Positions 13,797 to 47,856 are shown, counted from the first letter of the stretch. The stretch is 50,558 bases of DNA from Candidatus Methylomirabilales bacterium (GCA_041946635.1 JBHGAX010000001.1:1-50558); one strand, 5' to 3'. Made by a program: numbers and translations. Notes: generated by a model not told the origin, from the sequence alone.

Positions 13797-13872
13797 GACC
13801 CGGTAGCTCAACTGGCAGAGCATCGGCCTTTTAAGCCGAGGGTTCAGGGTTCGATTCCCTGCCGGGTCACCA
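13797..13872 (+). tRNA. tRNA-Lys (anticodon UUU)
   Basis: A 76-nt cloverleaf folded by hand: acceptor GACCCGG/CCGGGTC, D stem GCTC/GAGC, anticodon stem TCGGC/GCCGA with loop CTTTTAA, T arm CAGGG-TTCGATT-CCCTG, discriminator A and an encoded CCA. Confidence 0.93.
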
Positions 13873-15028: not shown

Positions 15029-15162
15029 GCCGACTGTTTCCGATTAGGTTCGTTGTGCCCCACGTTTGGCGCAGCTCTGCACTCTTTGCTCCCCACTTGA
15101 AGTTGGCATAATCCGGAGGTCTCCTCGGGCCCTGGCAATGGCGCCAGGAAAGGAGGAGACCG

Positions 15163-16404: not shown

Positions 16405-17341
16405 ACCCCCTGGAGCGGGCCTTGGCCGACTACCTGGCGACCCGCCGCGCGCTCGGGTTTACGTTGCGGGAGACGAGTGGCTGCTTGCGCAATTTTGTTG
16501 CTTTCCTCCAGACCGCCGGCGCTGCCCACATCACGACGGACTTGGCGCTGCGCTGGGCGACCCAGCCCGCCACCGCGCAGCCGGCCACCTGGACGTGGCG
16601 GTTAAGCATGGTCCGGGGCTTCGCCCGCTGGCAGAGCGCGCGGGACCCGCGGACCGAGGTCCCGCCGGCCGGGCTCCTGCCCCACCGGTACCACCGCAAG
16701 CCTCCCTACTTCTACAGCGACCGGGAGATCGCGCGGCTCTTGCACCGCGCCGCCCAGCTGCCCTCGCCCCGCGGGCTCCGCGCGCACACGTACGCCACGC
16801 TGTTCGGGCTGCTCACGGTGACGGGCATGCGCGTCAGCGAAGCCCTCGGCCTGGACCGGGCCGAGGTGGATCTCGCGAACGCCATCCTGACCATCCGGCG
16901 CACGAAGTTCGGCAAGTCGCGGGTGGTCCCGCTGCATCCGTCGACGGGCGCCGCGCTCCAGGCCTACGCCGACCGGCGCGACCACGTCGTGCCGGCGCCA
17001 TTGAGCCCGCCTTCTTCCTCGCGGAGCGCGGCACCCGGGTGACGGAGTGGATGGCGCGCTACACCTTCGCCAAGCTCTCGCAAGCCCTCGGGCTCCGCGC
17101 GCGCGCGACCGGCCACGGCCGCGGGCCTCGGCTGCATGACCTACGACACCGATTCGCCGCCCGCACGCTGCTCGAGTGGTACCAGGCGGGCCACGCCGTG
17201 GACCGCGAGCTCCCCAAGCTGGCCACCTACCTCGGACACGTCCACATCAATGACACCTACTGGTACCTGGACGCCGTACCGGAACTGCTCCAACTGGCCA
17301 CCGCGCGGCTGCTGGAGCCGGGCAAGGAGGTGCGCCCGTGA
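16401..17341 (+). pseudogene. Tyrosine recombinase, second gene of the trio (RitB-like), frameshifted
   Basis: The N-terminal 200 aa are in the frame of ORF 16401-17042. The catalytic C-terminus (HDLRHRFAARTL ... LGHVHINDTYWY) continues in the frame of ORF 16292-17341. The frame switch is near 16985-17005. Confidence 0.75.
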
Positions 17342-23328: not shown

Positions 23329-23335
23329 TCGATCC
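23301..23335. repeat. Direct heptad array (TCGGCNC x4-5) between the peroxiredoxin and HAD genes
   Basis: The array reads tcggctc tcggcac tcggcac tcggcac tcgatcc. It starts right after the peroxiredoxin stop (TAG, 23335-23337 on the minus strand). Confidence 0.8.
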
Positions 23336-23796
23336 TACTCCCGGATCTCCCGGGCCACGGCCAGGAGCCGCGCCGCGTCCGGCAGCTGCCCCGGGAGATA
23401 CTCCTCCTTGAAGCGCACGATGCCGGCCCGGTCGAGGATGAACGTCGCGCGGCGGGGGGCATTCCGCGCGGGATTCCAGACGCCGTACGCCTGGCAGACC
23501 GTCCGGTGCACGTCGCTCAGGAGCGGATACCGGAGGGCGTGGCGTCGGGCCCAGGCCTCGTGGGAGTACGTGCTGTCGCCGTTGATGCCGAGGACCACGG
23601 TCCCCGCCTGCGTGAACGCATCCAGGTGCGCCTCCAGCGCGGGCATGGCTTGCGTTCACCCGGGCGACCAGTCGAACGGATAGAAGGCCAGCAGCACGTT
23701 GTCCCGCCCGCGGAAGTCCGCAAGGCCGATCTCCCGATTCCCCGGAGCCGGCAGGCGGAAATCCGGCGCGCTATCCCCCACGCGAACCTCCCGCAT
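23335..23796 (-). CDS. Peroxiredoxin (AhpC/TSA, BCP-like) with in-frame TGA at the peroxidatic position; candidate selenoprotein
   Basis: A continuous 153-codon reading frame with SD GGGAGGG. The translation reads ...LLAFYPFDWSPG-[TGA 23656-23658]-TQAMPALEAHL..., so the TGA replaces Cys of the P-x3-S/T-x2-C motif. The ORF track reports only the C-terminal 103 aa. Confidence 0.6.
23613..23658 (-). promoter_or_regulatory. SECIS-like hairpin starting at the in-frame UGA
   Basis: UGAACGCA (23658-23651) pairs perfectly with UGCGUUCA (23620-23613). Inside it is a GCGC/GCGC stem with apical loop UGGAG about 20 nt 3' of the UGA. Confidence 0.45.
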
Positions 23797-25117: not shown

Positions 25118-25396
25118 TCAGGCGATCCGGAAGCGCTGCGCCTCCAGGTGCTCGTTCTTGCAGCGCGGGCAGCGGGACGGATCCGAAAAGCGGGTCCGGT
25201 CCTTGAACCGGAAGCCACACTCCCCGCACACCGGCGCCCGGATCTCGATGCGGCGCGGCGCCACCGACCGAGCGATGTGCTCCAGGTCGTCCACGATCAG
25301 CCGGCGGGGCACGAGGTAGCGCGCGGCCAGCTCGTCCAGCGTCCAGCTTCGCTCGGCGAGGAGCCGGCGGATCTCCTGTCGGCGCGTCTCCTCCAT
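25118..25396 (-). CDS. Transcriptional regulator, HTH fused to a Zn-ribbon (COG3357-like)
   Basis: A 92-aa protein. The N-terminal wHTH-like segment is RRQEIRRLLAERSWTLDELAARY and the C-terminus is CGECGFRF...CPRCKN. It is the last gene of the GRE cluster. Confidence 0.7.
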   Translation of the reverse strand: MEETRRQEIRRLLAERSWTLDELAARYLVPRRLIVDDLEHIARSVAPRRIEIRAPVCGECGFRFKDRTRFSDPSRCPRCKNEHLEAQRFRIA

Positions 25397-25505: not shown

Positions 25506-26411
25506 CTACGCCTTCCGCTCGCCGCCCACCCGCACGCCGGTCCACTCCTCCCAGAGCGTGATCAGGACCGGCTGGGCCTGGGGGCCCTTGCCCTGCGCCT
25601 TCGCCATGCGGAACAGCTCGTGGGCCAGCGCCGTGACCGGCACCGGCACGTCCGCGCTCCGCGCCATGTTCAGGGCGTAGCCGACGTCCTTGGTCATGAT
25701 GTCCACCGAGCCGCCCGGCACGAAGTTGCGCGACAGGAGCCGCGGCACGGTCTCCTCCATCACCCGCGAGCCGGCCCAGCCGCCCTTGATGGCCTCGTGC
25801 AGGGTCGCGGGATCCAGGCCGACCTTGGCGGCCAGCGCCCACGCCTCGCAGACCGCGGCGAAGTTCGCCGCCACGATCATGTTGTTGACCAGCTTGGTCG
25901 CCTGCCCCATCCCGCTGCCGCCCATGTGCACCACGGAACGGCCCAGTCGCGCCAGGACCGGCTGCACTCGGGCAAAGCCGCCGGGATCGCCGCCCACCAT
26001 GATGGAGAGGCTGGCCTCGATGGCCCCCTGCTCCCCCCCGCTCACCGGCGCGTCCAGGAAGGTGATCCGCCGCGCCGCCGCGGCCGCCGCGCACTCCTGC
26101 GCCACCTTGGCCTCGGTGGTGCTGAGGTCCGCGATGAGCGTGCCGGACCGCATGACCGCCAGGAGCCCGTCCGCCCCCAGCACCGCCTGGCGCACGATGT
26201 CGCCCGTGGGCAGCGAGAGCAGCACGATCTCCGCCGTCCGGGCCGCCTCGGCCGCGCTGGCCGCCCGCTTGCCGCCCGCGGCCACGAAGCGCTCCAGGCG
26301 CGGGGGATCGGTGTCGAAGCCGCTCACCTGGTAGCCGGCCTGCACCAGGTTGCGGGCCATGGGTCCGCCCATCACGCCCAGCCCCAGGAAGCCCAGCGCC
26401 ATGTCAGACAT
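25506..26411 (-). CDS. NAD(P)-dependent dehydrogenase of the 3-hydroxyisobutyrate dehydrogenase (HIBADH/tartronate-semialdehyde reductase) family
   Basis: The start is taken at ATG 26411 (AGGAGGAG SD). N-terminal GFLGLGVMGGPMARNL, and a C-terminal 6PGDH-like helical domain. Confidence 0.85.
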   Translation of the reverse strand: MSDMALGFLGLGVMGGPMARNLVQAGYQVSGFDTDPPRLERFVAAGGKRAASAAEAARTAEIVLLSLPTGDIVRQAVLGADGLLAVMRSGTLIADLSTTEAKVAQECAAAAAARRITFLDAPVSGGEQGAIEASLSIMVGGDPGGFARVQPVLARLGRSVVHMGGSGMGQATKLVNNMIVAANFAAVCEAWALAAKVGLDPATLHEAIKGGWAGSRVMEETVPRLLSRNFVPGGSVDIMTKDVGYALNMARSADVPVPVTALAHELFRMAKAQGKGPQAQPVLITLWEEWTGVRVGGERKA

Positions 26412-26524
26412 CGTCTCCTCCTTGCACCGCACCTTGCACCACGAAGGTCATGAAGGGGTTCGGAAGGACCCGGGTGGTGGCGAGGAAGCAGACCACATCC
26501 CGGCGGCGGGGTCAAGCCGAATGG

Positions 26525-27445
26525 CTAGCCTCCCACCGTGACCCGCACGCCCGTCTCCGCCGCGGCGCCGCTCAGCACCTCGATCCGCGCCGGCGCGAGC
26601 GGAGCGGCATCGGCGAAGGCGTAGGCCCGGCCGAGCCGGGCGTACTTGGAGTGCCCGAAGCGGTGATAGGGCAGGAGGCACACCTCGCTCACGCCCGCCG
26701 CGCGGGCCCGGCGCGCGAGTGCCGAGACGACCTCGGGCTCGTCGTTGAAGCCCGGGATGAGCGGCATCCGCACCACGACCCGCGCGCAGGCCGCCAGCCG
26801 GTCGAGGTTGCCCAGGATGCGGGCGAGCTCTCCCCCGGTCGCGGCCCGATGCCGCTCGGCGTCCACGTGCTTCAGGTCGAAGAGGAACAGGTCGGTCCAG
26901 GGCCGCACGGCCTCGCACGCCGCCCACGGCGCCTGGCCGCAGGTCTCCACCGCGGTGTGCAGGCCGCGCGTCCGGCAGAGCCGCAGGAGTGCGGCGGCGA
27001 AGTCCGGCTGGGCCAGCGGCTCGCCGCCGCCCAGCGTGACGCCCCCGCCCGAGTTCCGGAAGAAGGGCTCGTCCCGGAGCACCTCCGCCAGCACCTCCCC
27101 CGCCGCGACCCGGCGGCCGGCCATGGCGCGCGCCTCGGCGTAACAGGCCTCGGCACAGCGCCCGCAGCCGCGGCAGCGTCCGGCATCCTGGGCCATGCCC
27201 GCCTCCGTCCGGTGCGCCGCCCCGGTGGGGCAGGCGGCCAGGCAGGCCCCGCAGCCGATGCACCGCCCCGCCTCGAGCATCAGCTCGGGCTCGAAGCGCT
27301 GCGATTCGGGATTGGCGCACCAGGGACAGCGCAGGGGACAGCCCTTCAGGAAGACCAGGGAGCGGATGCCCGGCCCGTCGTGGACCGAGAAGCGCTGCAG
27401 GTCAAAGATGACGCCGGCCACCTCCGCCGCGCCGGCCTGGCTCAC
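26525..27445 (-). CDS. Glycyl-radical enzyme activating enzyme (radical SAM)
   Basis: DGPGIRSLVFLKGCPLRCPWCANP (the CxxxCxxC triad), two ferredoxin-type inserts (CIGCGACLAACP, CRGCGRCAEAC) and GGGVTLGGGEP. The GTG start overlaps the GRE stop (GTGA, 27442-27445). Confidence 0.9.
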   Translation of the reverse strand: MSQAGAAEVAGVIFDLQRFSVHDGPGIRSLVFLKGCPLRCPWCANPESQRFEPELMLEAGRCIGCGACLAACPTGAAHRTEAGMAQDAGRCRGCGRCAEACYAEARAMAGRRVAAGEVLAEVLRDEPFFRNSGGGVTLGGGEPLAQPDFAAALLRLCRTRGLHTAVETCGQAPWAACEAVRPWTDLFLFDLKHVDAERHRAATGGELARILGNLDRLAACARVVVRMPLIPGFNDEPEVVSALARRARAAGVSEVCLLPYHRFGHSKYARLGRAYAFADAAPLAPARIEVLSGAAAETGVRVTVGG

Positions 27446-29799
27446 AGCGAATGCTCCGTCCGGGCGATGATGTCCTCCTGCAGCACGGCATCGATCGTCG
27501 TGAAGAGGACGCTGAACCCCGCCACGCGCACCACCAGGTCGCGGTGCTGCTCGGGATGGACCTGGGCCTCCCGCAGCATGGCGCTGTTCACCACGTTGAA
27601 CTGCACGTGCTGGCCGCCCAGCTGGAAGTAGGTGCGAATGAGGGCGACGAGGTTCGCCAGGCCGGTCTCGCCCGCCACGCTGGCCGGGCTCAGCTTGAGG
27701 TTCAGCAGCGTCCCGTTGGAGGCTTCGCGCTGGTCCAGCTTGGCCGCCGACCGGATGACGGCCGTCGGCCCGCGCCGGTCGCGGCCCTGGGCCGGCGAGA
27801 TCCCGCCGTCCGCCAGGAGCATGCTGGCCGTCCGGCCGTCCGGGGTGGCGGCCACGGCGTCCCGGAAGAGCGCGTGCGCCGAGATGCTCTGGAGCCCCGG
27901 CTCGAACCGGCCGCCCCGCACGTTCCGGAAGGCCTTGAAGCCGCGGAGGATGCGGCGGCCCAGCTCGCGCGCGAGGGCGTCCACCTCGTCCGCGTCGTTG
28001 CCGTACTTGGGCGCCCGGTTCACCAGGAGCTGCCGCAGGGCCTCGCGGCCCTCGAAGTTGCCGGACAGGGCCTCGCGCAGCTCGGCCATGCCGAGGCGGC
28101 CCTCCTCGAAGACCAGCCGCTTCACCGCCATGAGCGCGTCGGCGGCGTTGGCCAGGCCCACGACGTTCGGGGAGGTGTAGTTGTAGACCGCCCCGCCCTC
28201 CTCGTAGCAGCGGCCGCGCGCCAGGCAGTCCTGCACCAGGAGCGACACGAACGGGTTCGGCGCCACGGCTCCGTGCAGGTGGTCCAGCATGTTGATGGAG
28301 GCCACCATGAGCCGGATCGCGTGGTCGAGCTGCCGGTCCAGGGCCGCCTCGAGGTCTGCGTAGCTGGTCAGCGGGTCGCAGATCGCCGGCCCGAGCTGCC
28401 GGCCCGTGAGCGGATCGCGACCGTCGTGGAGGGCCAGCGTGACCAGCTTGCCCAGGTTCAGGAAGCCCGCCGGGTAGTAGCCGTTGGTCTTCCCCGGGGC
28501 CTGGGGCTCGACGCAGCCCACCTCGGCGTAGTCCCGGGCCTCCCGAAGCGGCACGCCCATGTCCAGCAGCACGGGAATGATGGCCTCGTCGTTGAAGAAG
28601 GCCGGCATCCCCAGCCCCTCCCGGGCCAGGTCGGCGGCGGCGCGCAGGAACTCCGGCGGGGCGCCGGGGTGCACGCGCACCGAGAGCGACGGCTGCGGGA
28701 GCCGCGTGCGCCGCGTGGCCTCCAGGCAGAGGTAGGACAGCGCATTCGTCGCGTCGGCCCCCTCGGACGTCTGCCCGCCCAGGATGAGGTTCTGGAACAG
28801 CGGGTAGCCGCCGAAGCCCCGCGAGGCGATGCGGTCGCGCAGCTTCATGACCTGGTTGAACTGGATCCACAGACAGCCCAGCAGCTCCAGCGCGCGCTCG
28901 GGATCCAGGCGCCCCGCCGCCATGTCGGCCGCGTAGAACGGCCAGAGATACTGGTCGAAGCGGCCGGGCGAGATGGAGTGGCCGTTCGATTCGATCTGGA
29001 TGATGAGGTGCAGGAACCAGAATGCCTGCAAGGCTTCCTGGAAGGTCTGCGCGGGCTCGGCCGGCACGCGCCGGCATATTCGCGAAATCTCCACCAGCTC
29101 CGCGCGCCGCCGGCCGTCCGGCTCGGCCTGCGCCTGCTTGTCGGCGAGGTCGGCGTGCCGCCGGGCGAAGCCCACGGCCGCCCGCGCGACCTGGATGGCC
29201 GCCATGAGGAAGTCGCGGACGGGCAGGGCCTCCGGCGCGGTGAGATCCAGCGCCGCCAGCCGGGCCTGCGCTTCGGCCACCAGGCCGTTCAGCCCGCCGC
29301 GCAGGATGCGCTCGTAGTCGGGGGCCAGGTGCCCGGTGCCGCAGCCGAGGCTGGTGAGCAGGAAGAGCAGCTGCTGGTGCGCCTCCAGCGCTTCGGCCGG
29401 CAGGGCGGCCACGGCCCGCTCCAGGAACGACCGTCCCCGCCAGCGCGGCAGGATGGCGTGCAGCCGCTCACGCGTCTCGGCCGGCACGTCGAAGCGGTCG
29501 GCCGCCCGCCGCGGCAGGGAGTCCAGCTCCTCCAGCACCCAGCCCCAGGCGTACTCGGGGAAGACCGGCGCGGCCGAGGGCCGGCTGGCCTGGTGGCCGA
29601 CGATCAGCTCGTCGGGGGCTATGAAGATGCTCTGGCGATCCAGGATGGCGGCCAGGGCGGCGGCCCGCAGGCGCACCGGCGGTAGCGTCCCGGCGTGCGC
29701 CTCATAGACCTCCGTGACGATCTCCGCCCGCTCGTGGCACACCGAGGGCCGGTGGGCCAGGTGCCAGGCACGGAGTCGCGTCGTGCGGTCGCCGCTCAT
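27442..29799 (-). CDS. Glycyl-radical enzyme, PFL2/glycerol-dehydratase-like family, substrate unknown
   Basis: A 785-aa ORF with C-terminal glycyl-radical fingerprint VVRVAGFSVLF and thiyl loop EVGCVEPQAPGK (Cys-x-Glu). Confidence 0.92.
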   Translation of the reverse strand: MSGDRTTRLRAWHLAHRPSVCHERAEIVTEVYEAHAGTLPPVRLRAAALAAILDRQSIFIAPDELIVGHQASRPSAAPVFPEYAWGWVLEELDSLPRRAADRFDVPAETRERLHAILPRWRGRSFLERAVAALPAEALEAHQQLLFLLTSLGCGTGHLAPDYERILRGGLNGLVAEAQARLAALDLTAPEALPVRDFLMAAIQVARAAVGFARRHADLADKQAQAEPDGRRRAELVEISRICRRVPAEPAQTFQEALQAFWFLHLIIQIESNGHSISPGRFDQYLWPFYAADMAAGRLDPERALELLGCLWIQFNQVMKLRDRIASRGFGGYPLFQNLILGGQTSEGADATNALSYLCLEATRRTRLPQPSLSVRVHPGAPPEFLRAAADLAREGLGMPAFFNDEAIIPVLLDMGVPLREARDYAEVGCVEPQAPGKTNGYYPAGFLNLGKLVTLALHDGRDPLTGRQLGPAICDPLTSYADLEAALDRQLDHAIRLMVASINMLDHLHGAVAPNPFVSLLVQDCLARGRCYEEGGAVYNYTSPNVVGLANAADALMAVKRLVFEEGRLGMAELREALSGNFEGREALRQLLVNRAPKYGNDADEVDALARELGRRILRGFKAFRNVRGGRFEPGLQSISAHALFRDAVAATPDGRTASMLLADGGISPAQGRDRRGPTAVIRSAAKLDQREASNGTLLNLKLSPASVAGETGLANLVALIRTYFQLGGQHVQFNVVNSAMLREAQVHPEQHRDLVVRVAGFSVLFTTIDAVLQEDIIARTEHSL

Positions 29800-29900: not shown

Positions 29901-30890
29901 CTACTTCGCGTCGCGCACGGCCTGGATCAGGTCCTTGCCGATCTCGGGCTCGTACTTGGCGATGATGTCCTTCACCGCATCCTGGAAGGGCTTCTTGTCC
30001 TTCACCACGTTCACCTTCACGCCCTTGGCCTTGATCTTCTCCAGGTTCTCGGCCAGCGCCTTCTGGATGTAGTCCAGCTGGTAGTTCTCGGCCTTCTTGC
30101 CGGCGTCGCGCACGGCCTTCTGGATCTCGGGCGAGAAGCTGTCGAACTTCTTCCTGTTGAACACCAGCACGTTGCAGGAGATCGAGTGCTCGTTCAGGGA
30201 GTAAAACTTGATCACATCCACCCAGCCCCAGCTCACCACGCTGGCCGGGTCGTTCTCGCCCGCGTCCACCACGCCCGTCTGCAGCGAGGTGTACAGCTCG
30301 GAGGACGGCATGGGCGTGGGCAGCATGCCCATGTTCTTGAACATGTCGATGTACACCGGGCTCTGCATGCTGCGGATCTTCAGCCCCTTGGCGTCCTCCA
30401 CCTTCTCGATGGGCCGCTTGGTGCTGAAGATGCTGCGCACGCCGGGCAGGATGTAGGACAGGAGCAGCACGCCGTCGTCCTCCACCTGCTTGGCGATGGT
30501 CTCGCCCACCTTGCCCTGCACCACCTTCTTGAAGTGCGGCGCGCCCTCGAACAGGTAGGGCAGGTCGAAGACCTTCGCCTGGGGCGCCCAGCCCAGGATG
30601 TACGTGGTGGCGCCGATGGCCGCGTCCACCGCGCCGCTCTGGGCCATCTGGAACAGCTCCGCCTCGTTGCTGCTCAGCGAGCCGGAGTGGAAGATCTGCA
30701 CCTTCACCTGCCCCTTGGTCGCCTTCTCCACCTCGTCCGCGAAGACCTTGGGGGTCTCGCCCAGGAACCCGCCCTTGGGCGGCTGGCTGGTGGCGAGCTT
30801 CAGCGTCTGCGCGGCCTGCGCCGCCGGGACGGCCGCCAGGCCGGCGATGGCCAGGACGGCCAGCGTGATCACGAGAACTCTGCGAGTCAT
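29901..30890 (-). CDS. dctP: TRAP transporter substrate-binding protein (DctP family)
   Basis: Signal peptide (VLVITLAVLAIAGLAAVPAAQA). DctP-family pattern including the carboxylate-clamp Arg context GLKIRSMQSP. Confidence 0.9.
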   Translation of the reverse strand: MTRRVLVITLAVLAIAGLAAVPAAQAAQTLKLATSQPPKGGFLGETPKVFADEVEKATKGQVKVQIFHSGSLSSNEAELFQMAQSGAVDAAIGATTYILGWAPQAKVFDLPYLFEGAPHFKKVVQGKVGETIAKQVEDDGVLLLSYILPGVRSIFSTKRPIEKVEDAKGLKIRSMQSPVYIDMFKNMGMLPTPMPSSELYTSLQTGVVDAGENDPASVVSWGWVDVIKFYSLNEHSISCNVLVFNRKKFDSFSPEIQKAVRDAGKKAENYQLDYIQKALAENLEKIKAKGVKVNVVKDKKPFQDAVKDIIAKYEPEIGKDLIQAVRDAK

Positions 30891-31133: not shown

Positions 31134-32426
31134 TCACCCTCCCAGCATCAGGTCCGGCAGGATCGTGATGACGCCGGGGAAGTAGGCAATCAGGATGAGG
31201 ATCGCGGTCATGGCCGCCAGGAAGGGCATCAGCTCCCAGGTGAAGCGCTCGACCTGGATGTCCCCGATGGCCGCCCCGACCCAGAGGCAGGAGCCGCAGG
31301 GCGGGCTGGCCAGCCCCATGGCCGAGGCGAAGACCATGGTCACCATGAACGCGATCACGGGGATGCCCAGCTGCTCCGCCAGCGGCAGGAAGATGGGCGT
31401 GAAGATCAGGATGATGGGGATGGCGTCCAGGAACGTCCCGATGGCCAGGTAGGTGAAGAGCATGCCGGCTATGATGATCAGCTTGCTGCTGGTGTAGGAC
31501 GTGATGAACTCGGCGATGGCGTCCGGCACCTGGGCGATGGCCAGGATCCAGCCGAAGATGACCGACGCGCCCACCGCGAACATCACCGTCGAGGTACGGG
31601 TGCAGACGCTCACGGAGCTCTTGTAGATGTCCCGGAGCGGCGGGAAGCCGCGCATCATGATGGGGCCCACGATCAGGGCGTAGACGATCGAGATGTTGGC
31701 CGCCTCGGTCGGCGTGACGATGCCGCTCAGGATGCCGCCCATCAGCACCACGGGAATGCCCAGGGCCGGCACCCCCTGCCAGAGGGCCACCCCGCGCTCC
31801 GTCCAGGTCAGCCTGGGCTGCTTCGGGAAGTTGTACTTGATGCCGAAGTAGGTGCTCACGGCGAGGAGCGACAGGCCGGCCAGCACGCCCGGGATGACGC
31901 CGCCCAGGAGCAGCGCGGCCACGGAGCTGGACGAGACCAGCGCGGCCACCACCATCAGGTTGCTGGGCGGGATGATCACGCCGATGGTGGAGGCGACCAC
32001 CGTCAGCGCCGTGGCGTAGCCGCGGCTGTAGCCCTGCTTCACCATGGCGGGGATGAGCACGGTGCCCACGGCCGAGGTGTCGGCGACGGCCGCGCCGGTG
32101 ATGCCGGCGAAGAACATGCTCACCATGATGGTGATGTGGGACAGGGCGCCCCGGATGTGGCCGACCATCGCGTTCGCCACCCGGATCAGGCGGTCGAAGA
32201 GCGTGGTCATGGACATCAGGTCGCCCGCCAGGACGAAGAACGGGATGCAGAGCAGGATGTAGTTGTCCGCGCCCCCGAAGAGCCGCTGCGGCACGATGAT
32301 CGTGGGGATCTCCGCGTGCAGGAACTTGATGGTGATGTAGGCCGTGATGATCATGGAGTGCGCCACCGGGATCCCCATGAACATCAGGAGCAGGAAGAGC
32401 AGCAGGAGGACGGTTCCGCTCAGCAT
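31134..32426 (-). CDS. dctM: TRAP transporter large permease (DctM)
   Basis: Start at ATG 32426 (GAGGAG SD). A 430-aa polytopic protein beginning MLSGTVLLLLFLLLMFMGIPVAHS. The upstream part of ORF 31134-32990 is read-through across dctQ in another frame. Confidence 0.9.
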   Translation of the reverse strand: MLSGTVLLLLFLLLMFMGIPVAHSMIITAYITIKFLHAEIPTIIVPQRLFGGADNYILLCIPFFVLAGDLMSMTTLFDRLIRVANAMVGHIRGALSHITIMVSMFFAGITGAAVADTSAVGTVLIPAMVKQGYSRGYATALTVVASTIGVIIPPSNLMVVAALVSSSSVAALLLGGVIPGVLAGLSLLAVSTYFGIKYNFPKQPRLTWTERGVALWQGVPALGIPVVLMGGILSGIVTPTEAANISIVYALIVGPIMMRGFPPLRDIYKSSVSVCTRTSTVMFAVGASVIFGWILAIAQVPDAIAEFITSYTSSKLIIIAGMLFTYLAIGTFLDAIPIILIFTPIFLPLAEQLGIPVIAFMVTMVFASAMGLASPPCGSCLWVGAAIGDIQVERFTWELMPFLAAMTAILILIAYFPGVITILPDLMLGG

Positions 32427-32440: not shown

Positions 32441-32926
32441 TCAGGCAAAGGGGTTGTCCGGCCGCTCGCGCAGCACGGTGGCGATGTTCCGCGCCCGGTT
32501 CAGCAGGCCGAAGACGATGGCCACGGGCAGGCCCCAGTACACCCAGTCGAGGCGGAGCTGGAGCACGGTCGAGATCATGCGCTTCCCCATCTCGACGAAG
32601 CGCAGGCTGTCCGCCAGGAGCCACAGGAAGAAGGTGAAGATGAGCACCTCGCCCACCACCCAGAAGGCGTACCGCAGCCGGCGCGGCGCCTGCTCCACGA
32701 AGTAGCTGACCCGGAAGTGCTCCTTCTGGCGCTCGGCCAGCGCGTTGGCCAGGAAGATCAGCCACAGGAAGGCGAAGCGCGCGAACTCCTCGGTCCAGGG
32801 CAGCGCGATCTCCAGGATGTAGCGGGCGATCACCTGCACGAAGATCACCACCACCGTGACGTACAGGATGACCAGCGAGGTCACGTCGCAGCACCAGTCG
32901 AATGCCCGAAACGCCGCCTTCACCAT
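32441..32926 (-). CDS. dctQ: TRAP transporter small permease (DctQ)
   Basis: A 161-aa protein with four helices and the typical WTEEFARFAFLWLIFL segment. It lies 14 nt upstream of dctM. Confidence 0.85.
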   Translation of the reverse strand: MVKAAFRAFDWCCDVTSLVILYVTVVVIFVQVIARYILEIALPWTEEFARFAFLWLIFLANALAERQKEHFRVSYFVEQAPRRLRYAFWVVGEVLIFTFFLWLLADSLRFVEMGKRMISTVLQLRLDWVYWGLPVAIVFGLLNRARNIATVLRERPDNPFA

Positions 32927-33138: not shown

Positions 33139-33894
33139 TCAGAGAATGGTGCGGCCCCCGTCCACGGGGATGGCGGCGCCGGTGATGAAGGCGGCGTCGT
33201 CCGAGACGAGGAAGCAGATGGCCTTCGCGACGTCCTCCGGCGTCCCCGCGCGGCCCAGCGGACACACCCTGGCCCAGCCGGCGAACTGGGCGTCCACGTC
33301 GGCCTTGGGGCCCGAGCCCCGCGTCATGGGGCTGTCCACGAAGCCGGGCAGCACGCAGTTCGCGCGGATCGTGGGGGCGCCCTCCAGCGCGGCCATGCGG
33401 GTGAGCTGCATGACGCCCGCCTTGGCCGCGGCGTAGGCGCCGTGCTCCTCCTTCACCCGGATGGACATGCGGGAGGCCATGTGCAGGATGCTCCCGCCGC
33501 CGTGCCGCCGGAGCGCGGCCATCGCCGCCCGGGTGACCAGGAACGCCCCGTGCAGGTTGACCCGGATGACCTCATCCCACTCCGCCTCGGTGGAGTCCTC
33601 GATGCGGCGCGCCCGCAGGATCCCCGCACAGTGCACGACCACGTCGAGGCGCCCGAACAGCCGCTCCGCCGTCTCGAAGGCGGCCTGCACGTCCACGGCC
33701 TGCGTCACGTCGCACTGGCCGATCTCGGCCCGACCCCCGGCGCGGGTGATGGCGTCCGCGGTCCCCTTCGCCTTCTGGGCATCGATGTCCGCGATGAAGA
33801 GGCTGCCACCCCGGCGCGCGAACAGGTGCGCGGTGGCCTGCCCGATCCCCGATCCCCCGCCCGTGATGAGGGCGACTCGTCCCGTGAAGTCCAT
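33139..33894 (-). CDS. Short-chain dehydrogenase/reductase (SDR)
   Basis: TGGGSGIG cofactor motif, NCAG-like HCAG, and catalytic YAAAK. Confidence 0.9.
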   Translation of the reverse strand: MDFTGRVALITGGGSGIGQATAHLFARRGGSLFIADIDAQKAKGTADAITRAGGRAEIGQCDVTQAVDVQAAFETAERLFGRLDVVVHCAGILRARRIEDSTEAEWDEVIRVNLHGAFLVTRAAMAALRRHGGGSILHMASRMSIRVKEEHGAYAAAKAGVMQLTRMAALEGAPTIRANCVLPGFVDSPMTRGSGPKADVDAQFAGWARVCPLGRAGTPEDVAKAICFLVSDDAAFITGAAIPVDGGRTIL

Positions 33895-34008: not shown

Positions 34009-35151
34009 TCAGTACTCTTTGAGCAACTGCCGCGCGATCACGACCCGCTGGATCTCGCTCGTGCCCTCCCAGATCTCGTAGACCTTCGCCTCGCGGTACA
34101 TGCGCTCGATGGGGAAGTCGGCGCTGTACCCGTAGGCGCCGTGGATCTGGAGCGCCTCGCGCGTCACGGACACGGCGAGCTCGGACGCCAGGAGCTTCGC
34201 CTCCGCCGCCTCGCGGATGATGGAGCGGCCCTGGTCCTTGAGCCAGGCCGCGTGCCGCAGCCGCAGGCGCGCCGCCTCGATGCCCGCGGACATGTCGGCC
34301 AGCTTGAACTGGATGGCCTGGAGGTTGGCCAGCGGGCCGCCGAAGGCCGTCCGCTGCTTCGCGTAGCGCACGGCCTCCTCCATGGCGGCCTGCGCCAGGC
34401 CCACGGCCTGGCAGCCGATGCCGATGCGGCCGGTGTCCAGCGACATCATCGCGCGCTTGAAGCCCTCGCCCTCGCCCCCCAGCAGCGCCTCCTTGGGTAC
34501 CCAGCAGTTGTCGAAGACCACCTCCCCCGTGGCCATGCCCCGCACCCCCATCAGGTGCTCCTTGGAGCCGGTCGAGAACCCGGGCGTGCCCTTCTCCACC
34601 AGGAACAGCGTGATGCCCTTGTGCGCCTTGGCCCGGTCCACGGTGGCGACCACGACCGCCAGGTCGGCGATCATGGCGCAGGTGAGGAAGCGCTTGGCGC
34701 CGTTCAGGACGTAGCCGCCCCGCTCCGGTCGCGCCGTCGTCTGGATGCCGGCCACGTCGGAGCCCGCGCCCGGCTCGGTCTGGGCGATGATGCAGATCTT
34801 CTCCCCGGCGCCCATGGCCGGCAGGTGCTTCTGCTTCTGCGCCTCCGTGCCGTTCTTCAGGATCATGTTCTGCATGAGCGTGCTGAGGAGCTGGATGTCG
34901 GCCACGACCACCGACGCCCGCGCCATCTCCTCCTGGACGATGGCCCAGGAGACGATGTCCATCCCCGCGCCCCCGTACTCCGGCGGGAGCGTCATGCCGA
35001 GGATGCCCAGCTCGGCCATGCGCTTCCAGAGATCCCAGGGAAACTCGTCGGTGCGGTCGATCTCCGCCGCCCGCGGCTTGATCTCCTTCTCCGCGAACTC
35101 CCGCACCATGCCGCGCAGCATCCGCTGCGCCTCCGTCAGCTCAAAGTTCAT
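34009..35151 (-). CDS. Acyl-CoA dehydrogenase
   Basis: Start at ATG 35151 (GGAGG SD): MNFELTEAQRMLRGMVREFAEKEI. The C-terminal catalytic-base context is YEIWEGTSEIQR. Confidence 0.92.
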   Translation of the reverse strand: MNFELTEAQRMLRGMVREFAEKEIKPRAAEIDRTDEFPWDLWKRMAELGILGMTLPPEYGGAGMDIVSWAIVQEEMARASVVVADIQLLSTLMQNMILKNGTEAQKQKHLPAMGAGEKICIIAQTEPGAGSDVAGIQTTARPERGGYVLNGAKRFLTCAMIADLAVVVATVDRAKAHKGITLFLVEKGTPGFSTGSKEHLMGVRGMATGEVVFDNCWVPKEALLGGEGEGFKRAMMSLDTGRIGIGCQAVGLAQAAMEEAVRYAKQRTAFGGPLANLQAIQFKLADMSAGIEAARLRLRHAAWLKDQGRSIIREAAEAKLLASELAVSVTREALQIHGAYGYSADFPIERMYREAKVYEIWEGTSEIQRVVIARQLLKEY

Positions 35152-35172
35152 GGGGACACCTCCAGGCAGTAC

Positions 35173-35329
35173 GTGAACCGCCAGGACGCCACGGACGCCC
35201 ACACCCGAAAAGGCGCAGGGGCGTCGGGGCGCGGCGGCGAAAGAACGATGCAGAAGGCGGGCGCTGTTTCGCCTCGGCGCCTGTTCGCCTCTGCGCCTCT
35301 GCGATGATCCGAGCGTCTTGGCGGTTCAG
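35173..35329. repeat. Nested long imperfect palindrome filling the MaoC-ACAD spacer
   Basis: The outer arms are gtgaaccgccaggacgc (35173-35189) and gcgtcttggcggttcag (35313-35329). The inner arms are aggcgcaggggcgtcggggcgcggcggcgaaag and gtttcgcctcggcgcctgttcgcctctgcgcct. The right end supplies the MaoC TGA stop (35326-35328). Confidence 0.75.
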
Positions 35330-35775
35330 GTTCTCTCTCTCCGCCAGACCATCAGGCCGTGCTCGCCCTCCTGCACCACCTCGCCCCGCTGGTTCAGCAT
35401 GGTCACGTACTCGACGACGATCCCGCGATCCGGCTTCTTGGTCTCGCGCTTGCTCTGGATGCGGACGCGCACCCGGATGGTGTCGCCCATCCGGATGGGG
35501 CCCGTGAACTTGTAGTTCCAGTAGAGCGAGGCCATGTAGCGGGCGCCCGCGAACTCCGGGATGCGGAACTTCAGCCCCTCGGAGACGGCGAGCCCCAGCA
35601 AGCCGTGCGCGATCCGGGTCTGGTAGGGCGTCCCCTTGCAGTACTCCTCGTCGCAGTGCACGGGGCTCCAGTCCCCCGAGAGCGCCGCGAAGCTCACGAT
35701 GTCCGCCTCCGTGATCGTCCGGGCGGGGGACTCGTACTCCTCGCCCACCTGCATGTCCTCGTAGTAGCGCTCCAT
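35326..35775 (-). CDS. MaoC-like (R)-specific enoyl-CoA hydratase/dehydratase
   Basis: A 149-aa hot-dog fold protein with SGDWSPVHCDEEY and IAHGLL. Confidence 0.88.
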   Translation of the reverse strand: MERYYEDMQVGEEYESPARTITEADIVSFAALSGDWSPVHCDEEYCKGTPYQTRIAHGLLGLAVSEGLKFRIPEFAGARYMASLYWNYKFTGPIRMGDTIRVRVRIQSKRETKKPDRGIVVEYVTMLNQRGEVVQEGEHGLMVWRRERT

Positions 35776-35874: not shown

Positions 35875-37470
35875 TCAGGCTGCCCAGTCCGCCGCGAGGC
35901 CCATGGGCTCGGGACGGAAGATCCGCGCCTCCATGGGCCGGCAATCGGGCGCCACGCGGAGCGGGAAGCCCACGCGCGGGCGGATCTCCGTGTCCACCTC
36001 GACGCCGGGCGCCACCTCCGCGAGCGTCGGGCCCTGGTCCGTCAGCCGGAAGACGCAGCGCTCCGTGACGTACAGGACCTCCTGGCCCTCCAGCGCGGCC
36101 CGCCGGCCGTTGAAGGTCACGTGCTGGGTCGCCGCCACGAACTTCTGGAACCGCCCCTCCTGCAGGATGCGCAGCCGCCCGTCCTCCGCCCGGACGTCCA
36201 GCCCTCCCGCCGTCAGGGTGCCGCAGAAGATCAGGCGGCGAAGGCCCTGGGACAGGTCGATGAACCCGCCCGCCCCCGCCAGCACGTGCGGCTGCGCCTT
36301 GAGACGGCTCACGTTGGCGTTGCCCCGGGCGTCCACCTCGGCGAAGGCCAGGCAGCCGACGGTGATGCCGCCGCCGTCGATCAGGTCGAACTGCGAGGCG
36401 GAGTCGATGATCGCCTCGGGATTGTGCGAGGCGCCGAAGGCGAAGCCGGTGAGGGGCAGGCCGGCGATGGAGCCCTGCTCCACGGTGAAGCAGAGCGCAT
36501 CCAGCACGCCTTCCTCGAAGGCGATGGTGGGCACCAGGGACGAGATCCCGAAGCCGAGGTTCACGACGTGGCCGGGCTGGAGCTGGCACAGCGCGCGCCG
36601 GGCGATGATCTTCTCCGGGCCGAGCGGCACGGGCTGGATGGGCAGGGTCGCCGAGCGGATCTCGCCGCTGATCGCCGGGTCGTACGCGATGCCGGTGTTC
36701 TGGCGCTGCTCCGGGTCCAGCACCAGGGCGTCCACCAGGATGCCCGGCACCCGGACCATCTGCGGCGCGAGTGTGCCCGCGGCCACCACGCGCTTCACCT
36801 GGGCAATCACGGTCCCGCCGCAGTTGTGCGCCGCCATGGCCTGGGGCAGGACCCCCATGAAGGTCCCCTCGTGCTCCAGCGCGAGGTTGCCGTGCGTGTC
36901 GGCCGTGGTGGCGCGGATCACCGCCGCGTGGATGGGGAAGCTCCGGTAGAAGAGCCACTCCTCGCCGGCCAGCTGGACCACCTCCACCAGGTCGGGCGGG
37001 GTCGCGTCGTTCATCCGCCCGCCCTGGTCGCGCGGGTCCACGAACGTCCCCAGGCCGATCTTGGTGATCACGCCCGGCTTCCGCGCGGCGATGTCCCGGT
37101 GCAGGTGCAGGAGCGGGCCCAGCGGGAAGTTGTAGGCCTCCACCTGGTTGGCGTGGATCATCGCGTAGATCTTGGGCGACGGCTTGGAGGCGGGGCCGTT
37201 GACGTACGAACCGCCCACCAGCCGCTTCAGGAGGCCGGGATGCGCCAGGTGATCCAGGCCCACCGTGCCGAAGGAATCCCCGACGGCCAGGGGGAAGACC
37301 ACCGTCAGCCCGTGCGGCTCCCCGGAGGCCAGGAACCGGCCGCCGATCGCGGCCAGCACCTTGTCGGGCACGAGCTGCGCGGCGGAGCTGCTCACCGTCA
37401 CGGTTGCCCCGCTCGGGATCAGCCGGGCGGCTTCCTCCGGTGTGAGGATCGGTTTCACGCGCCTGTCCAC
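35875..37470 (-). CDS. Family-I acyl-CoA:carboxylate CoA-transferase (YdiF/propionate CoA-transferase-like)
   Basis: A 531-aa fused alpha/beta CoA-transferase. GTG start with AAGGAG SD. It is the first gene of the co-directional cluster. Confidence 0.88.
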   Translation of the reverse strand: MDRRVKPILTPEEAARLIPSGATVTVSSSAAQLVPDKVLAAIGGRFLASGEPHGLTVVFPLAVGDSFGTVGLDHLAHPGLLKRLVGGSYVNGPASKPSPKIYAMIHANQVEAYNFPLGPLLHLHRDIAARKPGVITKIGLGTFVDPRDQGGRMNDATPPDLVEVVQLAGEEWLFYRSFPIHAAVIRATTADTHGNLALEHEGTFMGVLPQAMAAHNCGGTVIAQVKRVVAAGTLAPQMVRVPGILVDALVLDPEQRQNTGIAYDPAISGEIRSATLPIQPVPLGPEKIIARRALCQLQPGHVVNLGFGISSLVPTIAFEEGVLDALCFTVEQGSIAGLPLTGFAFGASHNPEAIIDSASQFDLIDGGGITVGCLAFAEVDARGNANVSRLKAQPHVLAGAGGFIDLSQGLRRLIFCGTLTAGGLDVRAEDGRLRILQEGRFQKFVAATQHVTFNGRRAALEGQEVLYVTERCVFRLTDQGPTLAEVAPGVEVDTEIRPRVGFPLRVAPDCRPMEARIFRPEPMGLAADWAA

Positions 37471-37576: not shown

Positions 37577-38407
37577 TCAGCCCTTCACCGCGCCCATGCC
37601 CCAGCCGCGGATCAGGAACCGCTGGACGACCAGGAAGAAGAGGATGGCGGGAATGGTGACGAGGACCGCGCCCGACATCAGGAGCCCCCAGTCCACGATG
37701 GTGGATTCGTAGATGTTCTGGAGCCCGACCGGCATGGTCATGAGCAGCGGCTCGTTCAGCAGGATGCGCGCGAACAGGTAGTCGTTCCAGACCACCACGA
37801 ACGCGAACACGGATGTGGCGATGATGCCGGGCAGGGCCTGAGGCAGCACCACGTACACCAGGGACTGGAAACGCGTGGCCCCGTCGATGAAGGCGGCATG
37901 CTCCAGCTCCACGGGGAACGACTGGAAGAAGGCGCGGAGCAGCCACAGCGTGAACGGCAGCGAGATGGAGGTGTAGGCCAGGATGATCCCGAGGTGCGAG
38001 TTCACGAGGCCCGCCTGCTGCAGGAGGATGTAGACGGGGATGATGATCATGATGGGCGCGAACATGTAGGTGAAGAGGGTCATGTTGGCCAGCAGCTCCT
38101 TCCCGGGATAGCGAAACCGGGTGAGGCTGTAGGCGCCCAGGGTGGAGATGACGATGTCCAGCGCCACCGTGACCCCGGCCACGATGATGCTGTTCTTGAA
38201 ATAGACCATGAAGTACGTCTCGCCCACCAGCCGGCGAAAGTTGGCCAGGCTGTAGTTGCCGAAGAGCTGCGGGGGATACGCGAACAGGTCCCCGGCGGGC
38301 TTGAGCGAGGTGTAGAGCATCCAGAGCAGCGGCACCCCGCACAGGAGGAGCAGCGCCGCCGAGCCGGCATACAGCGCGCCCGCGAAGCCCAGTCGCCGCA
38401 GCCCCAT
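37577..38407 (-). CDS. ABC sugar transporter permease (MalG/binding-protein-dependent family)
   Basis: A 276-aa protein with six helices and the EAA-loop region (ELEHAAFIDGATRFQSL). Confidence 0.88.
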   Translation of the reverse strand: MGLRRLGFAGALYAGSAALLLLCGVPLLWMLYTSLKPAGDLFAYPPQLFGNYSLANFRRLVGETYFMVYFKNSIIVAGVTVALDIVISTLGAYSLTRFRYPGKELLANMTLFTYMFAPIMIIIPVYILLQQAGLVNSHLGIILAYTSISLPFTLWLLRAFFQSFPVELEHAAFIDGATRFQSLVYVVLPQALPGIIATSVFAFVVVWNDYLFARILLNEPLLMTMPVGLQNIYESTIVDWGLLMSGAVLVTIPAILFFLVVQRFLIRGWGMGAVKG

Positions 38408-39328
38408 CTAGGCCTCCAGGTCGCGCCGGTAGGCGCGGAAATAGACGATGGAGAGGAGGATCAGCAGCAGGAACAGGCTGACCGACACGGCGGCGCCCTC
38501 CCCCGCCTGGAACGTGGCGAAGGTCTTCCGGAAGGCGTACACGGGGAGGTTCTCCACCAGCCGCTGCAGGCCGCCCCCCGTGGCCATGAGCCAGGGCACG
38601 TCGAACTTGGTGAACATGAAGAACGTGCGCAGCAGGATCACCACGAACAGGACGTTGCGGAGCTCCGGGAGCGTGACGTGCAGGAAGCGCCGCCAGGCGC
38701 CCGCCCCGTCGATGGCGGCCGCCTCGTAGAGCTGCAGGTCGATGGTCTGGAGCCGCGCCAGCAGGCTGATCACCACGAAGGGGAAGAACTGCCACACCGC
38801 CACGAAGATGGTGGAGGCCATGAGCCAGTCCGGCCCGAGCCACACGACCGGCGCGTCCACGATCCCCAGCGCCTGCAGCAGGTAGTTCACGGGGCCGTAG
38901 GTGGCGCTGAGCAGCCACTTCCAGATCAGGATGGTGACGATGGTGGGCAGCATGTAGGGGAAGAGCGTGATGCCCCGGACGAAGCCGCGGCCGGTGAACG
39001 ACTGGTGGAGGAGCATCGCCGCGCCGAGGCCGAGGAGCACCTGGAGGCCGACGCTCCCCACCGCGAAGATCGCCCCCCGCCAGAAGCTGGACCAGAAGTC
39101 GGGGTCGCCCATGAGGCCCGCGTAGTTGGCGAGGCCCACGAACTCGTAGTGCGGCATGAGGGCGTGCTTGTTGGTGAGGCTGAGCCACAGGGAGTAGCCC
39201 ACCGGGAAGAAGATGAAGCCGAAGATGATGAGGAAGGTGGGCAGCGCGAGCAGGAACCCCGAGAGGGCCGCGCGCCGGCGCGCGGCCCCTCCGCCCTTCC
39301 GGCCAGCCGGGCCTGCATGCATCCCCAT
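38408..39328 (-). CDS. ABC sugar transporter permease (MalF-like)
   Basis: A 306-aa polytopic protein with EAA-loop LYEAAAIDGAGAWRRF. Its stop abuts the next start. Confidence 0.88.
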   Translation of the reverse strand: MGMHAGPAGRKGGGAARRRAALSGFLLALPTFLIIFGFIFFPVGYSLWLSLTNKHALMPHYEFVGLANYAGLMGDPDFWSSFWRGAIFAVGSVGLQVLLGLGAAMLLHQSFTGRGFVRGITLFPYMLPTIVTILIWKWLLSATYGPVNYLLQALGIVDAPVVWLGPDWLMASTIFVAVWQFFPFVVISLLARLQTIDLQLYEAAAIDGAGAWRRFLHVTLPELRNVLFVVILLRTFFMFTKFDVPWLMATGGGLQRLVENLPVYAFRKTFATFQAGEGAAVSVSLFLLLILLSIVYFRAYRRDLEA

Positions 39329-39388
39329 CCGCCAGTCCTCTCGCAGCGCGGCGGGGCCCCGGCAGGGACCGGGGCCCCGCGCGGCCGC

Positions 39389-40804: not shown

Positions 40805-41091
40805 GCTTCCCCCTCCCTTTCGGCTGGAATATCGAGCCACGCGGCCGCGCGCTGCGGAAGGCGGCGGGGCACGCTGGGGGCTCGGAGGGTGTCGCCGGCT
40901 CCGGGCCGGCGTGCCGGCGTCGGGCAACGGATGGCGCGCAGACACGCGGAGATCCCGAGGCGGGGTCGCGAGGGCGAGGACTGGACGGTCCGACACTGGC
41001 ATCGTCCGGCGAGCGGGAAATCACACTCAATTGGTACCGTAGCCCAGGGGCTCTCGGGCGTCAAGGCAATTGCGGCGGTGAAGCGCCGGCG

Positions 41092-42135: not shown

Positions 42136-42198
42136 GCGGCCTCCGGCGGGGAGCGCCGGCGAGGCTGAAGTGATCATGCGTTTCCACCCAGGCTGCTT

Positions 42199-42279
42199 GC
42201 AGGTTTCAGATGGCCGATTGCCGATTGCAGACCCGCGCCGACCGGCGAAGATCTGAAATCGTCAAATCTGCAATCTGCC
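42199..42279. repeat. CCGATTG/CAGATTT-type heptad hairpin between the two ADH genes
   Basis: The left arm is ...cagatggccgattgccgattgcagac and the right arm is gaagatctgaaatcgtcaaatctgcaatctgcc. About 25 imperfect bp can form. Confidence 0.65.
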
Positions 42280-42289
42280 GTGCCATGGC

Positions 42290-43695: not shown

Positions 43696-43770
43696 CGGCC
43701 CATCCCGGCGCCGGGGCTCGATCCTGGACCCGGGCCTTCAGACTGGCGGCGCTGGACGGGCGTGTGCATG

Positions 43771-43800
43771 TGCGTAATCTGCGTCATCTGCGGATGATCC
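43771..43800. repeat. Direct 9-mer repeats (TGCGTAATC-type)
   Basis: The array reads tgcgtaatc tgcgtcatc tgcggatgatcc. A near-identical array is at 48994-49025. Confidence 0.7.
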
Positions 43801-47701: not shown

Positions 47702-47856
47702 CCTGGCTCCTCCTCCGGAGACCCCTCCGCCTTCCGTTCCGGGTCCAGCTCGCGGGCAGCCGCTAAGTTTCTACGGTGCACCGGCGAGAGTCCAGCGGAA
47801 ATCCGCAAACCCCCGCCCTTTGCGAGCCTCCCCGGAGGATTGGCCCGAAGAGCGGC

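Follow-up and report, generated by a model that had tools for sequence, protein, structure and literature searches.

A TRAP-linked clade of glycyl radical enzymes with a conserved, remodelled pocket, found in Candidatus Methylomirabilales and probably acting on an anionic hydroxy-acid

The 50,558-nucleotide stretch of a Candidatus Methylomirabilales bacterium analysed here (GCA_041946635.1, JBHGAX010000001.1:1-50558; hereafter the window) encodes on its minus strand a full-length glycyl radical enzyme (GRE) of 785 aa (27442..29799) and, directly after it, a GRE-activating radical-SAM enzyme of 306 aa (26525..27445, minus strand). This GRE belongs to a large clade that differs from the glycerol and propanediol dehydratases in one conserved set of pocket residues, and whose genes mostly lie beside a tripartite ATP-independent periplasmic (TRAP) transporter. 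We infer that the pair is probably a GRE 1,2-eliminase with its activase. The substrate would be imported and anionic, either a hydroxy-acid or a diol, and a neighbouring enzyme would reduce the carbonyl product. What is new here is the conserved pocket together with the probable substrate class, set upon the standard radical machinery of GRE eliminases.

The GRE/activase pair is intact, with the thiyl Cys, the base Glu and the β1 His conserved. At about 71% G+C the open reading frame (ORF) lists of the window were noisy, and the real frames were picked by third-position G+C. The C-terminus of the GRE reads ...DLVVRVAGFSVLFTT... (the RVAGFSVLFTT region), while EVGCVEPQAPGKTNGYYPAGF and LGCGTGHLAPDY are also found in the 785-aa translation, and Pfam matches are to PFL-like PF02901 (702 bits) and Gly_radical PF01228 (116 bits). 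The superfamily traits are thus all present: the radical motif RVAGFSV, whose G761 corresponds to G763 of the glycerol dehydratase of Clostridium butyricum (GD; PDB 1r8w), a PFL-like barrel with the finger-loop Cys, and a nearby cognate activase. Present as well is the Cys-x-Glu of the Cys loop (GCVEP, in which C429 and E431 align with GD C433 and E435), a trait of GRE 1,2-eliminases and isomerases (PMC13450708). The activase matches the Radical_SAM and Fer4 models and carries a CX3CX2C motif and two ferredoxin-like CX2CX2CX3C inserts, visible in its frame as GCPLRCPWC plus CIGCGACLAACP and CRGCGRCAEACY; its GTG start overlaps the TGA stop of the GRE in the junction ctGTGAgc. A preliminary description of this DNA, made from the sequence alone, had reported a 785-aa GRE with a glycyl radical end and the Cys-x-Glu loop of the eliminase branch, coupled through GTGA to an activase with CPLRCPWC and two CxxCxxCxxxC inserts, and was borne out in each of these features. 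The same holds for its statement that small subunits do not flank the GRE, as no gene for a small subunit of the 4-hydroxyphenylacetate decarboxylase or X-succinate synthase type adjoins it; the flanks are DctP and the activase, and identity to those GREs is 24-29%. Among NCBIfam models only those of subfamily rank passed their cut-offs, namely TIGR01774 for the GRE (771 vs 678) and TIGR02494 for the activase (347 vs 174). All equivalogs fail for the GRE, scoring about half of the cut-off: HypD 613/1100, HpfG 576/1000, CutC 559/1050, HpsG 537/1000 and the PflD-type PRK09983 628/1109.

At the centre of the preliminary description stood a count of twelve residues after the Glu, leading to a Pro where GD has Asp447. 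The HMMER alignment to GD, which spans residues 4 to 784 and is gap-free from the Cys loop through the disputed Asp position, pairs P443 with D447, and the spacing count was right. As a check on numbering, this alignment reproduces H164, H281, S282, Y339, C433, E435, D447, Y640 and G763 of GD. The catalytic set is kept (C429 = C433, E431 = E435, H157 = H164, H274/S275 = H281/S282, G761 = G763), including the β1 His, the proposed acid for the leaving hydroxyl in GD, which is invariant in the clade. The pocket, in contrast, is changed: the Trp445-His446-Asp447 (W-H-D) segment of GD is replaced by Tyr441-Tyr442-Pro443, Tyr640 and Asn645 of the β8 segment are replaced by Gln637 and His642, and N156→S, Y339→F, P641→S and S642→I are further exchanges.

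This pocket is widely shared. Of the 120 best homologues from a set of 5.8 billion proteins, 93 have Gln at GD position 640 together with His at GD position 645. Each of H446→Y, A449→G (G445 in the window GRE), Q549→N, Y640→Q, N645→H and a Gly inserted at query position 665 is invariant in the 93/93 clade members examined, and S673→Q is also clade-wide, GD itself having Arg at 673. Complete or near-complete discriminators between the clade and 30 sequences of the GD and propanediol dehydratase (PD) type further include P641→S and V646→A, plus Y764→F and A766→V beside the radical Gly; all 30 of the latter have the W-H-D triad, Y640 and N645 without exception. Position 447 is never Asp in the clade (P, T, S, N or C, by subclade), aromatic residues are absent at GD positions 157 (deleted), 158, 159 and 451, and the clade gains Arg/Lys at GD 134 (R128 in the window GRE) and Thr/Ser at GD 155. 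Because the same invariant set is common to 93 of the 120 best homologues, the loss of Asp447 is, as judged from the alignments, part of a conserved clade-wide pocket change and not a drifted singleton.

A neighbour-joining tree of 48 representatives with 300 bootstraps (confined to the nearer GREs) separated the W-H-D type, that is GD, both PDs and 15 others, from everything else in 300/300 replicates. Support for the Gln640 clade itself was 65%, and that for the window's own subclade (≥58% identity) was 100%; mean identity was 53% within the clade and 46% between the clade and the GD/PD-type group. By sequence, the closest solved relatives are GD (1r8w, 706 bits), 9rco (694 bits) and the Roseburia propanediol dehydratase 5i2a (675 bits). 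The second of these, deposited as just "glycyl radical protein", is an ordinary Raoultella 1,2-propanediol dehydratase according to the depositors' paper (PMC12756279). An AlphaFold2 model built on the clade alignment reached a pLDDT of 91.5 and a pTM of 0.93, its sole weak spot being the loop with the inserted Gly, and Foldseek superposed it on GD with a TM score of 0.97, a root-mean-square deviation of 1.5 Å and 44% identity. Identities to further solved GREs were 42-43% for the PDs, 39% for PflD, YbiW and ECL_02896, 33-36% for CutC, 33-34% for HypD, HpyG, HpzG and HplG, and 32% for HpsG, IseG and IslA. Identity to every solved GRE is thus at most 44%, and because about 60% was needed to separate known activities in a published GRE similarity network (PMC6453916), the window GRE would on that scale fall outside all characterised clusters. 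A 2026 review of the superfamily lists GD, PD, HpfG, HypD, HpyG, HpzG, CutC, IslA/IseG, HpsG, HplG, YbiW and PflD as characterised eliminases and isomerases, and states that whole GRE clades remain unvalidated (PMC13450708). The earlier judgement that a plain 1,2-diol is unlikely and that the substrate cannot be assigned agrees with the replaced W-H-D, Y640 and N645, the failing equivalogs and the low identity to solved GREs; the tree and AlphaFold checks proposed along with it place the enzyme outside the GD/PD group and return a GRE fold.

Gene neighbourhoods provide the second line of evidence. Eighty loci from species-representative genomes were fetched with the clade profile and scored for signature residues and neighbours. 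The Gln640/His645 signature was present in 20 of the 80, with DctM within 3 kb in 16 of these 20, whereas TRAP genes lay within 3 kb in none of the 60 other loci (58 GD/PD-type, 2 of hybrid signature; Fisher p = 1.8e-13). Three of the four clade loci lacking TRAP (L007, L029, L036) are cut by a contig end, and the fourth (L010) has an ABC transporter instead; among nine extra loci obtained by exact protein look-up, TRAP stood beside the GRE in eight, the ninth (L089) having an ABC transporter. Members of the clade come from several phyla, Methylomirabilota, Spirochaetota, Bacillota and a deltaproteobacterial lineage among them, and one carrier, Marispirochaeta aestuarii (L002), is an isolate. 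A carbonyl reductase of the HIBADH, aldo-keto reductase or MocA type lies near the GRE in most of the clade's loci. Spirochaetota loci read activase–GRE–DctPQM–LacI–aldo-keto reductase–LarA homologue; in the deltaproteobacterial lineage a different LarA homologue adjoins the GRE, along with a URO-D-like gene and a GntR regulator. The two LarA neighbours are only 27% identical and not orthologues, and they are counted as two independent associations and not as one conserved partner. Members of the LarA family catalyse the racemisation or epimerisation of 2-hydroxy carboxylic acids, glycerate and 2,4-dihydroxybutyrate among them (PMC11770544). Because a TRAP transporter and hydroxy-acid enzymes are linked to the clade, an anionic GRE substrate is what the neighbourhoods point to by analogy; in the case of isethionate lyase, the step from an adjacent TRAP system to an anionic substrate was taken and proved correct (PMC6453916).

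The window itself encodes the complete TRAP set on the minus strand: the solute-binding protein DctP (29901..30890, 329 aa, Pfam DctP 239 bits), the large membrane subunit DctM (31134..32426, 430 aa, ATG at 32426, Pfam DctM 332 bits) and the small membrane subunit DctQ (32441..32926, 161 aa, Pfam DctQ 90 bits). On the other side of the GRE and activase lies a β-hydroxyacid dehydrogenase of the HIBADH family (25506..26432, minus strand), nearest to the tartronate-semialdehyde reductase model and below its cut-off. The best solved relatives of the window's DctP score 158-170 bits, with carboxylate binders (170 bits) above an isethionate binder (117 bits). Of the DctP relatives, 4X8R was solved with glucuronate and 4N8Y with galacturonate, and related closed structures hold pantoate or erythronate (PMC11668362). 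The Arg, Arg and Asn that anchor the carboxylate and α-hydroxyl in this subfamily, and the sulfonate in IseP (PMC11668362), are present here (vRsif, kiRsmq, agENdp) and match their counterparts when aligned to five solved relatives.

We hold it to be rather probable that the enzyme eliminates water from an imported anionic compound with vicinal hydroxyls. In the mechanism that we propose, DctPQM would import an organic anion, most likely a small carboxylate that bears hydroxyls on neighbouring carbons, whether a 2-hydroxy acid or an aldonic acid, and the activase would install the radical on G761, upon which C429 would become the thiyl radical. C429 would then abstract a hydrogen from the hydroxyl-bearing carbon while E431 deprotonates that hydroxyl, and H157 would protonate the neighbouring leaving hydroxyl as in GD/PD; water would leave, a carbonyl product would form, and the adjacent β-hydroxyacid dehydrogenase would reduce it. 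Gln637, His642, Tyr442 and perhaps Arg128 are plausible carboxylate anchors, because HypD holds its carboxylate with uncharged Ser/Thr/Tyr alone (PMC7077986).

A more explicit scheme, which we offer tentatively and think rather doubtful, would run from glycerate over malonate semialdehyde, 3-hydroxypropionate, 3-hydroxypropionyl-CoA and acryloyl-CoA to propionyl-CoA, with the GRE, the HIBADH-type enzyme or a short-chain dehydrogenase/reductase (SDR), a CoA-transferase, MaoC and an acyl-CoA dehydrogenase (ACAD) acting in that order. Of the explicit routes that give a role to each neighbour conserved in the window's lineage, it is the simplest. These further genes, all on the minus strand, are the SDR (33139..33894), conserved in related Methylomirabilota loci, the ACAD (34009..35202; best model acryloyl-CoA reductase AcrC, 460 bits vs a cut-off of 640), a MaoC-type (R)-specific enoyl-CoA hydratase/dehydratase (35326..35775) and a fused family-I CoA-transferase of the PF01144 type (35875..37470). 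The whole minus-strand order reads CoA-transferase–MaoC–ACAD–SDR–DctQ–DctM–DctP–GRE–activase–HIBADH dehydrogenase–PF0610-like protein, the last being a small winged-helix/Zn-ribbon protein and possible regulator (25118..25396, minus strand) that follows the dehydrogenase in related loci too. The arrangement as a whole is common to the closest relatives (72-73% GRE identity), metagenome-assembled genomes (MAGs) labelled candidate division NC10 or Methylomirabilia, in which ACAD is 85-91%, MaoC 80-89%, CoA-transferase 78-83%, HIBADH 74-79% and DctP 74-87% identical to the window's copy. This likeness makes it probable that the window comes from the phylum in question. The ACAD is syntenic in L001 and L009, and the HIBADH copy follows GRE and activase in L001, L007 and L009, with an SDR intervening in L001. 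It would be bolder still, and is in our estimation a guess with the odds clearly against it, to see here the first radical (B12-independent) dehydratase for a glycerate-like short polyhydroxy-carboxylate, feeding a reductive 3-hydroxypropionate → acryloyl-CoA → propionyl-CoA branch in Methylomirabilota, within a family of TRAP-coupled hydroxy-acid GREs of at least three specificities.

Several points weigh against an imported hydroxy-acid, and especially glycerate, as the substrate. For glycerate, the usual and cheap route of breakdown is that through glycerate kinase. Phe at GD position 339 and Ile at 642 (Val in PD) keep the two methyl-pocket positions of PD hydrophobic, which suits a carboxylate placed directly on the diol less well than a CH2- or CH3-spaced substrate, and with several aromatic side chains gone, the cavity is probably roomier than a C3 acid requires. 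The pocket argument also presumes roles of GD Asp447 and Tyr640 that go back in part to structure papers of 2004 and 2016. Furthermore, the CoA-transferase/MaoC/ACAD trio is linked in one lineage only and is parted from the TRAP genes by the SDR (by LacI in L001), and may be a separate unit. Finally, neither a characterised member nor an account of the TRAP-linked clade was found in our searches of the GRE literature, recent papers included.

The same set of neighbours could serve an imported hydroxy-sulfonate. Here the GRE would dehydrate or desulfonate a compound such as 2,3-dihydroxypropanesulfonate (DHPS) in the manner of HpfG or HpsG, the HIBADH-type enzyme would reduce 3-sulfopropionaldehyde, and the CoA-transferase, ACAD and MaoC could process 3-sulfopropionate, whose degradation via sulfoacrylate has been proposed (PMC11489063). 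TRAP transporters accompany sulfonate GREs as well (PMC6453916), and the two-Arg plus Asn motif of DctP is the one that binds sulfonate in IseP (PMC11668362); likewise, the HIBADH family includes sulfolactaldehyde reductase (190 bits for the window's dehydrogenase), and the second-best model for the ACAD is sulfinopropanoyl-CoA desulfinase. We nevertheless regard this as unlikely, since the HpfG and HpsG models reach only 576 and 537 against cut-offs of 1000 and identity to HpsG, IseG and IslA is 32%. The anchor of the C-S lyases (Arg at β1 −4, Gln at the common β1 site, Arg on β8) is absent, the window GRE having Cys153, His157 and no Arg in PGLQSISAHALF; this mapping is indirect, built on the equivalences HypD-His160/IslA-Gln193 and HypD-Arg156/IslA-Arg189 (PMC8473560) plus our own equation of HypD His160 with GD His164. 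The DctP lies nearer to carboxylate binders than to the isethionate binder (170 vs 117 bits), the LarA partners act on 2-hydroxy carboxylic acids, and neither a sulfite reductase nor a sulfite exporter was identified among the window ORFs scanned.

To a similarly small degree we credit an elimination that begins at C2 of the 2-hydroxy acid, in which the hydrogen would be abstracted there, the C3 hydroxyl would leave and a 2-keto-3-deoxy acid would result (pyruvate from glycerate, a 2-keto-3-deoxy-aldonate from an aldonate). Such an enzyme would be the radical counterpart of the classical sugar-acid dehydratases, with a mechanism like that of HpsG or of the YbiW/PflD type, and initiation at a secondary carbinol with formation of an α-keto radical has precedents among GREs (PMC13450708). 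The sugar acids bound by DctP relatives, together with LacI and GntR regulators, MocA oxidoreductases and a KduI neighbourhood in related loci, would fit; however, HIBADH reductases, the conserved partner in the window's lineage, typically take ω-aldehydes of short acids and not 2-keto acids, and identity to YbiW/PflD (39%) is below that to GD/PD (42-44%). Less credible again, and to our mind very unlikely, is a C-N lyase that expels a non-oxygen leaving group from an imported amino- or trimethylammonio-hydroxy acid such as isoserine or carnitine. The pocket aromatics Y441, Y442, F335 and F446 could form an aromatic box, and loci of subclade II carry aminotransferases and a DgaE-like ammonia-lyase, but the β1 His, the acid for the hydroxyl leaving group in GD, is invariant where CutC has Asp, the CutC model scores 559 against 1050, and the window's operon holds no amine-handling genes. 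Scarcely tenable, finally, is a divergent B12-independent glycerol or 1,2-propanediol dehydratase: GD and the two PDs are the best sequence and structure matches, the TIGR01774 cut-off is passed and the catalytic Cys/Glu/His are retained, yet the residues invariant in 30/30 GD/PD-type sequences (W-H-D triad, Y640, N645) are all replaced, bootstrap separation from that type is 100%, TRAP occurs in 0/60 other loci vs 16/20 clade loci, neutral diols are not typical TRAP ligands, and neither a microcompartment shell gene nor a 1,3-propanediol dehydrogenase was recognised among the neighbouring ORFs scanned.

Within the reading that we prefer, an eliminase for an imported hydroxy-acid, the clade probably covers several related substrates. 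Identity of the window's DctP is 51-57% to those of Spirochaetota, 42-54% to those of a Bacillota subclade and 27-29% to those of a gut subclade from Oscillibacter/Lachnospiraceae MAGs (L005, L013, L015-L017, L021, L022, L025; a subset of P0073-P0110). The gut subclade is set apart by its pocket variants (Pro156, Met445, Ser447, His437) and by its TRAP binding protein, and its conserved partners are a MocA oxidoreductase and an RpiB-like isomerase; it probably uses a different acid substrate, and one of its 90%-identity clusters comprises 802 sequences. Family searches gave no informative assignment for the HAD hydrolase, DUF362 and URO-D-like neighbours. Some single loci deserve mention. In L088 (a GCA_024644775.1 contig, 2441-6181) the LarA homologue stands next to the GRE together with nickel-insertion genes (HypA-like and CobW/HypB-like) and a Zn-dependent alcohol dehydrogenase, and two TRAP systems lie on the opposite side of the GRE. 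The GREs of L027 and L028 (Desulfosporosinus) are hybrids that combine Tyr640 with His645, Gln673, Asn549, Gly449 and W-L-P at 445-447, and that of L062 (a Nitrospiraceae MAG) has W-L-T, Asn645, Glu549 and His673; none of the three has a TRAP neighbour, and they seem to be additional uncharacterised types, intermediate between the GD/PD group and the TRAP-linked clade. One clade member, L018/P0083 from Candidatus Fermentithermobacillaceae, has Gln for the catalytic Glu (GCVQP), with its glycyl motif (RVSGFSV) and its TRAP neighbour retained; in CutC the Glu of Cys-x-Glu is catalytically essential (PMC13450708).

Beyond the operon, the stretches upstream of the CoA genes (37577-43783 and 45986-48947, both minus strand) hold a sugar-type ABC transporter with a binding protein and two permeases, two Zn-dependent alcohol dehydrogenases, a tungsten/molybdenum-type aldehyde:ferredoxin oxidoreductase and a ROK-family protein, and this region may be part of a wider polyol, sugar or aldehyde catabolism. 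A tRNA-Lys(UUU) gene (13797-13872, plus strand) follows the housekeeping genes uvrB, ileS, lspA and purA, and two phage-type integrase ORFs (15112-17042, plus strand) come after it, because of which the GRE cluster may be part of an integrated island; to delimit such an island, a repeat of the tRNA-Lys 3' end was sought in the window, and none occurs there. A Bcp/AhpC-type peroxiredoxin gene (23335-23796, minus strand) has an in-frame TGA (23657-23655) at the expected peroxidatic Cys (...FYPFDWSPG-TGA-TQAMPAL...), and the gene codes for a selenocysteine peroxiredoxin or else is a pseudogene. A selenocysteine insertion sequence was sought after this TGA: the hairpin starting at the UGA was no better than shuffled sequence (z = 0.16), and there was no Rfam match.

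GRE eliminases are the fastest-growing class of radical enzymes, and newly assigned GRE clades have each revealed a new anaerobic pathway, as for choline, hydroxyproline, isethionate, DHPS and anhydro-sugars. Assigning the substrate of the present clade would bring to light a further radical dehydration, that of an organic acid, would reveal oxygen-sensitive fermentative chemistry in uncultured soil and groundwater Methylomirabilota, and could open a biotechnological route to products of the 3-hydroxypropionate type. The soluble TRAP binding protein beside the clade GRE offers a handle for ligand screening, as it did in the isethionate lyase case.

Among known systems, GD (1R8W/1R9D) is closest in architecture: the two enzymes align end to end at 44% identity and a TM score of 0.97, share the Cys-x-Glu loop, the β1 His, H281/S282 and the glycyl motif, and are each encoded alongside an activase of the same two-ferredoxin-insert type. 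Unlike GD, the window GRE has Pro for Asp447, Tyr for both His446 and Trp445, Gln for Tyr640, His for Asn645, Ser for Asn156 and Phe for Tyr339, lacks Tyr157 by deletion and carries a one-residue insertion at 665; furthermore, it is linked to a TRAP importer and a β-hydroxyacid dehydrogenase and not to a 1,3-propanediol dehydrogenase. The PDs of Roseburia inulinivorans (5I2A/5I2G) and Raoultella planticola (9RCO-9RCR), the two solved representatives, which are of the microcompartment-associated types GRM3 and GRM5 (PMC12756279), resemble it in fold, with 42-43% identity, in Phe at GD 339 and in a hydrophobic residue at GD 642, whereas they retain the W-H-D triad, Y640 and N645. An adjacent TRAP system, moreover, was found in 0/58 loci of GD/PD signature.

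With regard to the proposed physiology, the system is instead reminiscent of HpfG, HpsG and IslA/IseG, which are likewise GRE eliminases working on imported anionic hydroxy compounds. A TRAP transporter is frequently encoded next to IseG (PMC6453916), and in the HpfG pathway an aldehyde reductase comes after the GRE. The likeness does not extend to the proteins themselves, as equivalog scores are about half of the cut-offs, identity is 32%, and the Arg/Gln/Arg sulfonate anchor of the C-S lyases is missing from the window GRE. HypD, the trans-4-hydroxy-L-proline dehydratase, provides a comparable case at the level of chemistry: it is a GRE dehydratase for a carboxylate-bearing substrate that keeps the β1 His and CXE, although it is only 34% identical to the window GRE, which scores 613 against the NCBIfam cut-off of 1100.

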